Part shown: positions 42,001-48,000 of the stretch, piece by piece
Layout: each line of letters begins with the position of its first letter
Numbering within the stretch: position 1 is the stretch's first letter
Assembly: GCF_013167455.1 (NCBI RefSeq)
Contig: NZ_CP038328.1
Source of the DNA: Escherichia coli O157:H7
GTDB lineage: Bacteria > Pseudomonadota > Gammaproteobacteria > Enterobacterales > Enterobacteriaceae
DNA length: 64,000 nucleotides
Strand: one strand, 5' to 3'
Position numbers: made by a program

Positions 42001-45000
42001 AGATCTGTACTCAGGCATGGGATGAGATCTGCGTTATTATCATCTGTAATAAAAGTAATATCCCGACTAGTCATAAATTCGTCGTTCAAATAAATGTCGA
42101 CCCGATATGTACCAGGTGGTGCCTCGCGTCCCTTAGTAAAGGCGGATAAATCGACAGATTCAGCAAGATCATTGCTTAAAAACCGTGGATTAAAATAATA
42201 CTCTGCGTCAACGGGAAATACCGCAGTTGCTAAGCTAAGGGCAATGGTAAGCCGTGCAAAGCGAGGCAGTAGTAACACCTGATGCATACGATATGCCTTA
42301 AATGCGGCACGAAAGGCTGTCATTATTAATTCCGATTGAGTTTATTATTAATTAGGTCACTGGCTTACTGCATGGTTGCCTTAATACGCGGAGTTAATGC
42401 GCCGTAATCATTGATCGTCTGAAAACTGATATCCCCGGTGGCAGCATGCGGGATATCCACCGACACTTCACCTTTTGGCGGCACCATGGTGTTTGGGAGA
42501 TTGCTATTTCCTGCTTTCATATTTGTTACGGTAATGAAGTAGGGCGTTGGATTAATAAGAGTGAGATTGCTACCGCTGCGACGAAACCGAAGCATTGCAG
42601 GCGCTTCTTCAGGTGCCATTGCCAGGTTCGTGGGCCGATAAAACATTTTTATGCGGCTAATAATTGCCAGCTGTAATGTATTCTCATTCTTCTGGTCTTT
42701 TTCCATAGCAGGAATAGCTTTAACATTAACCCAGAACAGGCTTTCACGGTCGCCGGGTAACTGATGATTAGTGGCGTTGATTATCCGCAGCGTATTCTCT
42801 TTTTTACCTTGCATGGAAAAAAGAGGTGGGGTAATGACAAACTGGGTGTCTTTTTGGTCACCAGCATTTTCTATCCATGACTGAATGAGATAGACACTGG
42901 CAGGATCATTATTCGTGACAGGCAATAAAACCTGTTTCTGGTTTGCCGGATAAATTACCCGCGTCGCACCCAGTGCGACAGCTGCGTTGGCAACGGTGCT
43001 ATGGCAAGCAAAGAGCAATAAAAGTAACACTGTCGCCATAAAGGAAATAGAGTAGGGGGTACGCGTAGTTTGCATCTGATGCATTCTCCATGTGTTAAGA
43101 GGATAAGCGGGAAAACCGTTACATCAGACAATCGGTAAATGTTGCTAATACATTGGCGAGTCACCGGGTTTCCAGACTTAATGCGTTTGTAATAAAGGTT
43201 GGTTCTCTTTTAATAGGAAAACCTTGCTAAAAAGTAAATATTTTTAATAACAGTAAGTTTAACTACTGTTGTTTATTGAACGTTTAGATATTATGTGATT
43301 TTTCATAGCGCTCCAAATACAAACCACTCATCATTAATAATGAGATTCACATTGGTGAATTGCTCGGGTGTGCGTAGCCATGCCACACACACCCTGTTTT
43401 AATTTCAGATGCCGTATAGCCACCTTAATATTGAATTATAGATATTGAACTTTGAAGGTCGCATCTGCGTTTGCAGTACCAGCTACGGACTGCCCGAGAG
43501 CAATATAACGAGCCTGGAATGGTAGTATATTCGTGCCATCAATCAAGTCGGTTTTAGCACTAAAAGTGGCCCCATCAAGTATTAATACCTCACCCGTACG
43601 GTCCAAAATTTGAATACCGACATTTTGGGCAGAGCCTGCCGCTGAACTCTGCAGCGCTAACGTATCGTCATTACTGGTGACAGTAGTACCCAGGAATGCA
43701 ACAGCTGCATTACTGGAAACATTGGTATCACAATCATTCAGCTTGATATTGAAGCCAACGGCGGAGCTGAGGTCACCCGCTTTAGCCAGGCGAGAAGAAC
43801 GAACCTGACCCAGCTCAACCGTTTGGTTCATTGATTCGGAATCAATCGCACAAGCGGCATTTACCACTTCACCTTTAAAATGAATAACACCGCCATTAAC
43901 AGTGGTCGTTACTGATTCATCACCCTCGGCTGCGCTTACCGCAGCAGACGACATCGCCAACACAGAAACGACAATCATACCAACATGTTTGAGTTTCATA
44001 ATTCTCCAAAATTTATATTTAAGTAGCTGAATAAAGAGAGTTAACAATTAAGTCATTCTGTTATTGCTTATAAAACAAGAATCATTCTTGATTGGTTGTT
44101 GCCCTGAGAATATAGTTTCCAGGGTTATTACATTTCACGAAGAACGATAATATCTTTAAATCACAAGGACACCTAATCACAACAAGTTTATTGCTGCACT
44201 TGTTGAAGAGAGTATTTGCAAAAACATTTTATGTCGCTAAATAACATGACGATTTCATTATGCATGTTATTTATAAACCGTGACTAAACAGAATATTATT
44301 GCGAACAAGGGAAGTGTCAGGAAAGGTCAAGGGCTACTAATGGTTTATATGGCTATAAATCATTAGCTATAGTTAATGTTTGCCTGGTGTAACTAACACC
44401 GAATTGCTCTAAACAGATAAGTGCAGGGTTTATTAAAGCTGACCGACAGACTTTCTTAACCTGGTAATATCTCTCTTGGGTGACTCTCCAAACATCCGCA
44501 AATATTCCCGTCGGAAATGGGATAAGCTTTCGTAACCGACAGCATAGGCTGCTGTGGTGACATCGTAATGTTCATTCAGCATCGTTCGCCTGACTTCATT
44601 GAGACGTAGCCATTTCTGATACCGGAGTGGACTCATTCCCGCAAGCTGCCTGAAGTGTTGATGGAAAGAGGGCGTGCTCATTTGCACGCGGTTTGCCAGC
44701 TTGAGTCTTCAACGCTGGGAAGATGCGGCAAACGGCAAATCGGCATACCAGCCAGCCTATATCCGTCATGCACAGGCCAATTATGAAAGAGGAGAAGCTT
44801 AAGTTCTGGAATCCTGAACGAATAACGACTACCGGAAAATCACTTCGTATCACTCAGATACGATTTAACATAATATACATTATGCGCACCAATATAAACC
44901 AAGGGAGAATCTAGTCGTTGGCGGTCATGATTGTCCTGCTCATTAACAACGACCAAACCCCATATCTTACTCTTACTTAATACCGTATTCTCGGCTTAAC

Positions 45001-48000
45001 CGACCGTGCAACCTCAACACATTGGTTTCAACTGCCGTCACCACGTTCTCTGGAAAATCTGTCGGTAATGAAGTCTTCACGTTATCCAGTGCTGCCGGAA
45101 TCATTCTGGCAAAGTCACTCAGGATTTCATGCATCTGCACTTCCGGGAATCTCAGCACCTTTGCTGTCGCCAAAAAATGTCGCGGATAAATTTTATCGAT
45201 TGCCGTTTTTTTGCCTTTGGATGCGTTAAGCCCCATTGCCAGTTTGAGATCGCTGATGTGTATTCCCGTACCGCCAAGGACCGGAAATGCTGAAATGATG
45301 TCGTAAAATGGCGTGAGTCGATAACTGCCGCCAGCCTGAATAAATACGGAGAAGTTTTTTGCATGGCCATCCGTTGCGCCAATCAACCACTGGAAGACCT
45401 GGAATTTCATAAAATCATAACGATCGCGAAGCGCCTCGCTGAACCCCATCAAAAAAGCCATGATCCGCGCGATGCCTGGGCCTCCATCTGATTCATATTT
45501 CACCGATGAAGGTAAACCGAATGTCTGACACATATCCTCCTGTGGCAAGCGAAGTAAAACCGTTCGCTCAGCATTCCAACGCCTGTCAAAACGTTCGACC
45601 GCTAACGCGCGCACATTTCCCGCTTTAATGATTTCTGCGTCCGGGACATTCAACCCAAGTTCTTTCGCCAGCAGCAGACAGTAATACTCATTATCAACGC
45701 TTTGGCTGAGATCGAGCGTCGCATTGGGCTGCCTGATTTCCCCAATCGGTAATTTAATGATGTGCGTCGTCGGCGTTATTCCTTTCGGAATGCACCAGTC
45801 ATTGCCTATTCTGAGCAGTGCTGTCTTCTCCTGTGCGCCAGCAACCGAGATGCGAAAGTCATTTTCTTCTCTAATCATGCCTAGCGGGATATCTGCTTTA
45901 TAAGCCGTTAATACTTCTTCAAGTCTGACTTCAGTAAGCTTTTCCCATGCCATTATCGGACGCGTTACGGTTTCGTCTTCGGGTATTAACGTCACGGCAC
46001 CAACGCTGTCTCGCCCTATTTCTGACAATAAATCAAACTGTACGGGATAAACGCTGCGATATCCGCGATCGCGGATAAAAGGGAGGCTTTAAAAGCCTTT
46101 TGAAGTTGGCAATATTAAGCCGCATGCCATCTCGACATGCGGCTTATACTGTTTACCAGCTATATTTCACTCCCAGCATGCCCTGAGTATCGCTATAGCC
46201 TTTATCACCTAGTTGCACACCGACATTCCCCCACAGGCTAAGGTTGTTATTTACTTTCGCCTCAACCCCGGTACGTACTTCACCGAGATTTCGCGCACCA
46301 TCACGGCTTACGGTTTGACCATTCATCTTCACGGCGTAGACTTTGCTATTGTTGATCCAGTTCGCTTCAATGTAAGGCTGGAACTCACGCTGTTTACCAT
46401 CGTCACGCTGGTGATGGCTATTCAGGTAGGTTTTCACCCCAAGTCGCGTTTGCACGTTTCCGTCGCCTTCCGTTTCAATGCGCGTTCCGTCTTTCCGGGC
46501 ATGGTCAGAATCTTTCACACCCATCCAGGTGATTTGCGCCTGTGGCTGGACGTACCAGGTATTCAGCGTCCCTTCGCTGCCGCTACATGTTCCCGCTTCA
46601 AAGGTATACCCACCCTCAACAGAGGCCGTCACACCGCGAGAATCATAGTCGTCAGCAGAACGGTTATCGGAACTGACGCTGTTATCAAACCAGTTATACA
46701 GCGCCCAGCTGTCAACATAAGCGCCGGTCTTATTCGCATCGTTCTGATACCAGGTCGCGTACAGCCCAGCGCTGTAACCGCTGATGCGCCCATCCGATTT
46801 ATAACCCACACGATTACTCTGAGTATTACTGTGCTGATTGGCGTAGCCTGCCATCACGCCAAGATGCCAGCGATCCTGCGCGTTGCTACTCCACTGCGCC
46901 AAATCGCCGCCTAGCTGCAATACATAGCGGTTAGCCTGAGTATTTAGCTGGCCGTCTCCGGCACTGGAACGTTCGTGCCCCCCGACATGACGCATCCACA
47001 TACTGCTTGCTGAATCCTGAGAATGCAGTGAATCTGTATATTGCGGCTCACCCAGACGGTCGTGTAAGCGATGGCTAAACAGCGAGTTGGCTGCGGCAAT
47101 GTTGCTGATATAGCTTCCGGCCTCCGGGCGATAAACTGATGGGCCTTCCGGATCCACAACAGGGGGATTATTGATGGGATCGGGTGTATCCGCTGGCGTT
47201 ACGCCGTCCCATTTACTGGTCAGATACCAGTTTTTCTCGTCATTCCCCTTCCCTTTAGCCAGCGTGTAGACGTAAGCCCCAGCTTCGACAGTTCCGGTGG
47301 TCAGCGCGAAATTACCTGCAGAATTACCGCCAACCTCAATGAGTTCAATACCGTTGACCGTTTGCGCACCGACGCCGCCAATGTTATCAACCCGAACGCG
47401 AGTGTTCCCTTGGGTATCGCCTTTCACGTTCATCTTATCGGTGGGTGAATTATCGCCGCCCAGCGTCGCGTTGAACGTCATCAGGCCATTGTTTCCGGTA
47501 TAGTTGCCGTTAACGGTCAGTACATTCCCCGGTTTTCCTCCTTCACTGTTCATTTGAACCGTGCCGCCATTCTCCAGGTTGCCGCCGATTCGCCGATTGT
47601 GGTTTTAGCGACACGCAGTGTCCCCCCAGACATAACGTTCACATCACCTGCAGTGGTGACATTTCCCGACATCACACCGCTGTTATGGATATTAATGTGT
47701 TGACTTGCCGTATTAATGGCAGAGTCGGAACCGAAAGCAATTTCCCCCCCCACGATATCCGTCGTACCCTGATACGCCGAGGAATCGTTGTTAAGAGTCA
47801 GGATCCCGGTACCCAGTTTTGTCAAATCACCGCTACCGCTGATACTGTGCGTCATCGCCCAGCTACGCTCAGTGGAGATGGTGAGCAGGCCATTATTGAT
47901 AACGGAAGCATCACCCAGGTTTTTCTGCTCGTTGACGCTGAGCGCGCTGCCTGTATCAATGTTGAATTGCCCCACAAAGCGGCTATTATCGCCATCCAGC

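Follow-up and report, generated by a model that had tools for sequence, protein, structure and literature searches.

The hip locus of this Escherichia coli O157:H7 genome is very probably a lineage-specific, naturally arisen hipA pseudogene that was produced by a single 619-bp deletion. In the window, by which we mean the whole analysed stretch of 64,000 nucleotides, the hipA remnant has neither a ribosome-binding site nor a start codon, it is annotated as a pseudogene, its junction is identical throughout the lineage and the locus is intact in sister lineages. The hipBA operon of E. coli K-12 is a type II toxin-antitoxin system, with HipA as the Ser/Thr kinase toxin, HipB as the Xre-type antitoxin and repressor, and four operators. 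The O157:H7 locus shares with the K-12 operon its chromosomal position, between the F9 fimbrial cluster/yneL fragment and the ydeK/ydeU autotransporter, as well as an identical distal operator, but it is without hipB, hipA codons 1–86, the leader and predicted promoter region and 2.4 of the four operators. A hipB gene placed immediately upstream of and overlapping hipA, as in a HipBA module, is not found, and the locus is no longer a toxin-antitoxin module. Coordinates of the individual features are given in Table 1.

Table 1. Features of the remodelled hip locus, in positions of the window.
Feature	Positions	Strand	Remarks
hipA 3' remnant	44973–46038	-	Last base of codon 86, codons 87–440 and the stop codon
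Deletion junction	46038–46039		Plus strand AAAC/TGTACGGGATA; 1-bp (C) microhomology
Third HipB operator (counted from hipB), right-hand part TGTACGGGATA with GGATA half-site	46039–46049		
hipB-distal HipB operator, complete, perfect 18-bp palindrome TATCCGCGATCGCGGATA	46060–46077		Identical in K-12 and intact O157:H7
Terminator-like hairpin, AGGCTTTTAAAGCCT then CCCTTTTATC	46084–46098	-	Consensus scan; also in the intact locus
Second hairpin, 10-bp perfect stem AAGCCGCATG/CATGCGGCTT, 8-nt loop	46118–46145	-	Directly after the autotransporter stop codon

Alignment of the hip region with the intact O157:H7 strain PV15-279 and with K-12 revealed one clean gap of 619 bp. The deleted segment corresponds to positions 2840–3458 of the intact O157:H7 locus (L001), running from GGTTGTCTGGAT to CATCTTATCCGC, and the flanks on both sides of the junction are 100% identical to PV15-279. 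Lost with it were hipA codons 1–86, the two hipB-proximal operators, the left part of the third operator and the whole of hipB, which falls entirely inside the segment missing relative to both the intact O157:H7 locus and the K-12 locus (L003). The hipB leader was lost as well, and the promoter region would also lie within this interval, the native promoter being placed there on the basis of how the operators are arranged and of a -10-like hexamer situated between the proximal two. Between the hipA ORF and the autotransporter stop codon (46153) there remain only 124 bp (46029–46152) that contain nothing but operator and terminator sequence, leaving no room for the 88-codon hipB, as a first-pass annotation of this DNA had pointed out. 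The same annotation had proposed a deletion of about 0.5 kb encompassing hipB and the 5' end of hipA. The alignment bears out the single event but enlarges it to 619 bp, and the accompanying description of a toxin remnant without antitoxin, although right about the loss of hipB, was overstated as the predicted promoter region, ribosome-binding site, start codon and N-terminal domain were lost too.

Inspection of both deletion endpoints revealed neither an IS element nor a repeat. A repeat- or IS-mediated deletion was rejected on account of the microhomology of only 1 bp and the absence of a mobile element at the endpoints, and although the endpoints resemble each other weakly (8/13), this match is offset from the junction and was dismissed. 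The deletion would have occurred as one illegitimate-recombination event at the 1-bp microhomology, in the ancestor of typical (non-sorbitol-fermenting, beta-glucuronidase-negative) O157:H7, and the 619-bp loss would have taken most of the Couple_hipA domain, or N-subdomain 1, encoded by the missing hipA codons.

The exact 121-bp junction sequence was present in 284 out of 5,426 complete E. coli genomes, all of which were O157:H7-like, and these genomes were sequenced independently on various platforms from cattle, human and food sources. TT12B, a typical-clade strain described as clade 3.12, has the junction. The deleted segment was found intact at 100% identity in O55:H7 DEC5B and in the O157 strains 493/89, LSU61, F3113 and PV15-279, and at 99.8% identity in other O55:H7 strains. 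It is thereby retained in sorbitol-fermenting O157 (493/89 and LSU61, the latter described as a clade 9 intermediate) and in beta-glucuronidase-positive O157:H7 (PV15-279, a strain named 48 times in a paper titled on a beta-glucuronidase-positive O157:H7; PMC6256406). F3113 groups with PV15-279 by its pO157 plasmid. At 100% identity the segment was encountered in only four O157 genomes, as compared to the 284 with the junction. As the junction genomes are all O157:H7-like and the segment is intact in O55:H7, 493/89, LSU61 and PV15-279, the deletion marks typical O157:H7. The first-pass annotation had named, as a finding that would refute it, that the arrangement is the common allele in natural isolates, and this holds within the typical O157:H7 lineage but not in E. 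coli overall, where the junction allele is in the minority (284/5,426).

The interval 44973–46152 is byte-identical to strain Sakai, in which hipA is the pseudogene ECs_2114 and no hipB is annotated. The Sakai pseudogene and the remnant described here are the same object, with nothing of substance differing between them. In the strain of the window, the neighbouring autotransporter pseudogene also harbours a Tn5393-like transposon, at a distance of 3.7 kb. PGAP calls the remnant a pseudogene, 'HipA family toxin', 'incomplete; missing N-terminus', and does so in other O157:H7 genomes; RM8376 has it annotated as a pseudogene too. A truncated hipA without hipB is already known, being annotated in the Sakai reference and by PGAP and mentioned in a paper that was reached via the locus tag (PMC7766294). 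Literature searches for hipA with O55/O157, or for hipB with Sakai and pseudogene, returned no dedicated description.

The ORF that starts at TTG (44973–46028, minus strand) has 351 codons, corresponding to HipA residues 90–440. The TTG at 46028 is native Leu90 and lies three codons downstream of the point at which native hipA resumes (46037/46038, residue 87). When the ORF was extended by these three codons to 46037, query residues 1–354 matched HipA 87–440 in the K-12 HipA structures 2WIU, 3DNT and 3TPD (phmmer, E = 2e-234). The remnant makes up 1,066 nt of the 1,323-nt gene and is 100% identical to the intact PV15-279 allele over the shared part. All kinase-core motifs are kept in its open frame of 354 native codons, and no decay signature was found in this frame, the lineage being too young for one. 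Full-length HipA of intact O157 has Couple_hipA at residues 6–103 and HipA_C at residues 149–401 (Pfam). Couple_hipA has been lost from the remnant, in which HipA_C is the only Pfam domain, and it is not a full-length HipA with an N-terminal Couple_hipA (N-subdomain 1) and a HipA_C core. The in-frame stop TAA (46089–46091, plus strand) is positioned exactly 20 codons, or 60 nt, upstream of the TTG. The first-pass annotation was accurate on these points, having described a C-terminal ORF that begins at a TTG without a ribosome-binding site and is preceded by this stop.

No Shine-Dalgarno-like motif was found in the 20 nt ahead of the TTG (ATCCCGTACAGTTTGATTTA) or ahead of the next three in-frame starts. 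The native hipA start codon and leader are deleted and there is no ATG at the 5' end of the remnant. A consensus scan of the minus strand upstream of the remnant detected no sigma-70-like promoter, but this negative result tells little, as the scan likewise missed the known promoter of hipBA where the locus is intact. The terminator-like hairpin closely follows the autotransporter pseudogene and precedes the operator, which its T-run abuts; any transcription reading through would have to pass it to reach the hipA remnant. The second hairpin is conserved in K-12 and intact O157:H7 according to the alignment. An Rfam scan of the whole window gave no RNA family matches. With no recognisable promoter or ribosome-binding site of its own, without a proper start codon and set apart from the upstream gene by two hairpins, the remnant is most likely neither usefully transcribed nor translated.

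These features bear directly on whether the remnant could be a functional orphan kinase resembling HipT, expressed from the TTG or another start after autotransporter read-through and acting without HipB or HipS. HipT belongs to the tripartite HipBST systems of E. coli O127:H6, Legionella and Haemophilus, and it is like the remnant in concept, being a HipA-family core kinase without N-subdomain 1 (PMC6581861, PMC10627512). HipA 87–440 is equivalent to the core kinase, which HipBST systems encode as a toxic protein in its own right; the frame is uninterrupted, the entire HipA_C domain is kept and the remnant spans the whole region that aligns with the HipT chains 7AB3 and 8EZR. HipT is however expressed from an operon that also holds hipB and hipS, has an N-terminal mini-domain of its own and targets TrpS, whereas the O157:H7 remnant is a recent deletion accident that has no hipS, hipB or expression signals. 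No hipS or hipB-like ORF, such as would precede the kinase gene in a HipBST module, appears between 46029 and 46152 in the ORF list, and the coding sequence for the N-subdomain has been deleted. The remnant is orthologous to K-12 HipA, while its similarity to HipT is remote and partial (E 1e-7 to 7e-4), with the HipT N-terminal mini-domain apparently absent. The missing promoter-like site, Shine-Dalgarno motif and 5' ATG, the in-frame stop, the two hairpins and the fact that the upstream gene is itself a frameshifted pseudogene all speak against expression, as does the pseudogene call by annotation pipelines. Furthermore, an unneutralised active HipA-type kinase is expected to arrest growth and to be counter-selected, yet the lineage is fixed for this allele in 284 genomes. 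An orphan kinase is accordingly considered very unlikely. There is a similarly slight chance that read-through from the autotransporter pseudogene, or a cryptic promoter, now and then brings about expression of the 354-codon HipA(87–440) frame, with the TTG or an internal start, to give an antitoxin-less HipT-like core that contributes to growth arrest or persistence in typical O157:H7. A weaker version of this, if true, would be that the loss of hipBA on the branch to typical O157:H7 had a measurable effect on persister formation or on phage tolerance.

The consensus for HipB operators is TATCCN8GGATA, with operators spaced at 10/21/10 bp (PMC3376134, PMC4150777). Four such sites occur in the intact O157:H7 locus and four at the K-12 locus, while the hip region of the window holds one complete operator and one half-site, so that 2.4 of the four have been lost. 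The TATCC-N8-GGATA pattern was found twice in the window against 0.02 occurrences expected by chance. The perfect palindrome with this architecture that the first-pass annotation had reported is native sequence, as TATCCGCGATCGCGGATA is found at the matching relative position in both intact O157:H7 (L001 3480–3497) and K-12 (L003 3406–3423). The third operator, whose intact form TATCCGCTGTACGGGATA is at L001 3452–3469, has had its left 7 bases (TATCCGC) deleted. The hipB-proximal pair makes up the 'O1O2' oligonucleotide of PMC3376134, by which numbering the retained palindrome would be O4. With neither a cognate HipB nor a downstream promoter left at the locus, the distal operator that survives is orphaned. 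It is highly improbable that this operator and the half-site still function, be it as a site for another Xre-type or HipB-like regulator, for a nucleoid protein or as part of the autotransporter terminator. Perfect conservation of the palindrome and the abutting T-run of the terminator-like hairpin would suit such a role, but HipB is no longer encoded at the locus, the only downstream gene left to regulate is a dead hipA fragment, and conservation is uninformative in so young a clone, in which even the flanks are 100% identical to PV15-279.

An engineered deletion scar was raised in the first-pass annotation because the palindrome centre, GCGATCGC, is an 8-bp rare-cutter site. This AsiSI/SgfI site lies about 20–26 bp from the junction. 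Such a scar, or an assembly artefact, is practically out of the question, as GCGATCGC is the centre of the native operator in K-12 and all intact alleles examined, O55:H7 among them, is off the junction and not over-represented (2 in the window vs 1.85 expected), and the very same junction recurs in 284 complete genomes that differ in laboratory, host and sequencing platform and include Sakai.

The pseudogene arisen by a single natural deletion thus remains the preferred explanation, the endpoints, content, distribution and annotation status of the deletion having been shown directly. Had only hipB been lost, the HipA kinase would be set free and growth arrested; a deletion could therefore be tolerated only if it inactivated the toxin at the same stroke, as the 619-bp deletion does. 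In this respect its extent agrees with toxin-antitoxin biology, the selective logic being one that we infer. Other E. coli genomes carry independent hipA truncations in which hipB is kept (annotated 'hipB' and 'HipA N-terminal domain-containing protein'), in keeping with inactivation of the toxin either beforehand or at the same time.

Typical O157:H7 is without a functional HipBA module, and persistence models based on K-12 hipA consequently do not transfer to it. Automated toxin-antitoxin surveys can score the hipA remnant inconsistently, as the pertinent entries of a 2009 table indicate, in which HipA is absent in Sakai and present in EDL933 (PMC2654758). The 619-bp deletion with its exact junction provides a clean binary marker that distinguishes typical O157:H7 from O55:H7 and sorbitol-fermenting O157, and also from PV15-279, the one beta-glucuronidase-positive O157:H7 strain examined. 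In this manner the marker slightly refines the picture of stepwise evolution.

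The region was aligned with the complete hip locus of O157:H7 strain PV15-279 (L001) and with that of a K-12 derivative (L003), which revealed one gap with perfect flanks. By exact string comparison the junction lies at window position 46038|46039 (plus strand, AAAC|TGTACGGGATA) and the missing segment corresponds to 2840–3458 of L001. The first-pass annotation had proposed a single deletion of about 0.5 kb that removed hipB and the hipA 5' end; a single event with this content was found, its size being 619 bp. Since the endpoints share 1 base only (C) and neither an IS element nor a usable direct repeat was found at them, the event looks like a simple illegitimate-recombination deletion. 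As placed by the annotation of the intact locus and computed operator positions, the segment absent relative to both references held hipA codons 1–86, the complete hipB, which overlaps hipA by 1 nt in the intact locus, the hipB leader, both hipB-proximal operators and, from the third operator, its leftmost 7 bases.

The window consists of E. coli O157:H7 backbone, and the 1.8 kb around the hip locus is 100% identical to O157:H7 genomes. In frame 5' of the TTG that opens the hipA remnant there are 20 further sense codons and then a stop, 60 nt upstream, and no Shine-Dalgarno motif was found in the 20 nt preceding the TTG. The upstream neighbour is the 3' end of a frameshifted autotransporter gene, and the 124-bp spacer between the two is too short for the 88-codon hipB. 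It contains a perfect palindrome, TATCCGCGATCGCGGATA, of the form TATCC-N8-GGATA, for which 0.02 matches would be expected by chance in a window of such composition. These descriptive elements, namely the TTG-initiated ORF, the lack of a Shine-Dalgarno motif, the stop, the gap and the palindrome, were all confirmed as first described. Native HipA sequence restarts at Phe87 and the 354-residue translation matches residues 87–440 of solved K-12 HipA structures end-to-end (E = 2e-234). In intact O157 HipA, Pfam assigns Couple_hipA to residues 6–103 and HipA_C to 149–401, while the remnant retains HipA_C only, so the removed piece is most of N-subdomain 1.

Window positions 44973–46152 are byte-identical to strain Sakai, in whose reference annotation hipA (ECs_2114) is a pseudogene and no hipB is present between hipA and ydeU. 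The PGAP label for this stretch in further O157:H7 genomes reads 'type II toxin-antitoxin system HipA family toxin; incomplete; missing N-terminus'. The truncated hipA is an already known, annotated and lineage-typical pseudogene. According to a 2009 review table (PMC2654758), EDL933 has HipA and Sakai does not, a discrepancy that we interpret as an annotation artefact of the same remnant. The literature search found no paper on the exact deletion endpoints or their phylogenetic placement.

Features of the hip locus and its surroundings in the window
Feature	Position	Strand	Remarks
yddM	about 3,240-3,530		Solitary HigA-family antitoxin; transferred from RM8376 (L005 28502-28786)
ddpB	about 13,350-14,400		Transferred from collinear RM8376 annotation (L005 20256-21277)
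dosP	about 16,800-19,200		Transferred from collinear RM8376 annotation (L005 15462-17851)
yneL-like AraC-type helix-turn-helix gene fragment	44433-44702	minus	'missing N-terminus'; between hipA and F9 major subunit gene
hipA remnant ORF	44973..46028	minus	TTG start, 351 aa (ORF listing); product plainly HipA
Third operator, right-hand part	46039-46049		Survives
Distal operator, whole	46060-46077		Survives; the palindrome
Terminator-like hairpin with T-run	46098-46084		Between autotransporter stop and remnant
Hairpin, 10-bp stem	46118-46145		Between autotransporter stop and remnant; read directly
Autotransporter gene, ECSE_1600-family (ydeK/ydeU)	46153-49765 and 56468 to about 58290		Frameshifted pseudogene beside hip locus; stop at 46153
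Tn5393-type streptomycin-resistance transposon	49766-56467		6,702 bp; inside the autotransporter pseudogene

The Tn5393-type transposon carries a Tn3-family transposase, a resolvase, IS1133, aph(3'')-Ib/strA and aph(6)-Id/strB, and is bounded by roughly 81-bp imperfect terminal inverted repeats starting GGGGTCGTTTGCGGGAG and by a 5-bp target duplication (TACGT, 49761–49765 and 56468–56472). It distinguishes the strain from most O157:H7 genomes; it is absent from RM8376, the Sakai annotation of the autotransporter region contains no transposon genes, and the same place is covered at at least 80% in 68 of 5,426 complete genomes. Even where the transposon is missing, O157:H7 has a frameshifted autotransporter gene (noted as 'frameshifted' by PGAP for RM8376 and PV15-279); in the Sakai annotation it appears as a ydeU pseudogene together with ydeK. 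In the F9 paper the yneL-like fragment is treated as a cryptic regulator whose reporter expression was minimal. The oxygen-sensing c-di-GMP phosphodiesterase gene dosP is a frameshifted pseudogene in RM8376 and Sakai, and for ddpB PGAP indicates a frameshift in RM8376 but the Sakai annotation has an intact CDS; by these annotations, transferred to the window copies, the window holds several lineage-specific gene inactivations. No toxin gene is annotated adjacent to yddM, a further orphan toxin-antitoxin component in the window.

Judged from its sequence, the hipA remnant is very probably an inert pseudogene. The deletion took away its native start codon and leader, together with the interval separating the proximal operators, where the only -10-like hexamer was seen (TATAAT in K-12, GATAAT in O157), a putative hipBA promoter. 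The promoter scan was insensitive, as it also missed the promoter of the intact locus. The first four in-frame start candidates all lack a Shine-Dalgarno motif; the only candidate to have one, an ATG near HipA residue 252, would yield a product lacking the Gly-rich loop. The remnant matches the intact PV15-279 allele at 100% identity and thus shows no secondary decay, as expected for so young a lineage. Free HipA arrests growth, and a deletion removing hipB would therefore be tolerable only when hipA is disabled too. A complementary decay pattern is seen in other E. coli genomes that keep hipB and have hipA cut to an 'N-terminal domain-containing protein'. The functional toxin implied by the first-pass annotation was not upheld, given the lack of expression signals and the pseudogene annotation. 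It is highly unlikely that HipA(87–440) acts like HipT, which serves as the core kinase in tripartite HipBST systems, is about 100 N-terminal residues shorter than HipA and is toxic alone (PMC6581861, PMC10627512): the domain content is analogous, but the remnant has no expression signals, hipS or hipB, its similarity to HipT is only remote, and a successful clone would hardly have fixed an active kinase without antitoxin.

In O157:H7 and K-12 alike, the intact locus carries four TATCC-N8-GGATA sites, matching the published consensus (PMC3376134), and their K-12 spacing of 10/21/10 bp agrees with the literature (PMC4150777). The distal operator is identical base for base in K-12 and intact O157:H7, which identifies the palindrome, by sequence comparison, as native operator DNA. 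It is highly unlikely that this orphan site retains a residual role, as HipB is missing in cis and there is nothing left for the site to regulate. A cloning scar at the GCGATCGC core, raised in the first-pass annotation, was ruled out since the core is the centre of the native operator; the 8-mer is not over-represented in the window. The recurrence of the same junction in 284 of 5,426 complete genomes effectively rules out engineering or an assembly artefact. Apart from the scar caveat and the implied toxin, the original interpretation was largely right.

About 5 kb away from the hip locus, the F9 fimbrial usher gene contains a further exact TATCC-N8-GGATA match, TATCCTGCGACCTGGATA, at 40873–40890. 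Its spacer is not palindromic and the same sequence is conserved in K-12 (L003 901–918); the match may be fortuitous, or it may mark an additional HipB site. A 13-bp indel relative to K-12 (window 46078–46117; L003 3424–3475), in the spacer separating the distal operator from the autotransporter terminator, swaps small hairpins, GGCG...CGCC in K-12 and AGGCTTT/AAAGCCT in O157 and O55.

In the 284 genomes the 121-bp junction-spanning sequence is uninterrupted, and all others match one half only. The carriers listed are O157:H7 strains, with cattle and humans among their sources, and the deletion is also carried by TT12B, a clade 3.12 strain (PMC7175801). O55:H7 DEC5B, O157 strain 493/89, LSU61, F3113 and PV15-279 all retain the 619-bp segment at 100% identity, and the other O55:H7 genomes retain it at 99.8%. 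LSU-61 is a clade 9 intermediate in the stepwise-evolution model (PMC7175801), and PV15-279 is named throughout a paper on beta-glucuronidase-positive O157:H7 (PMC6256406). F3113 clusters with PV15-279 by pO157 plasmid (PMC10758439), and we infer its placement from this plasmid grouping only. The most economical reading of this distribution is one deletion on the branch to typical, non-sorbitol-fermenting, beta-glucuronidase-negative O157:H7, followed by clonal inheritance.
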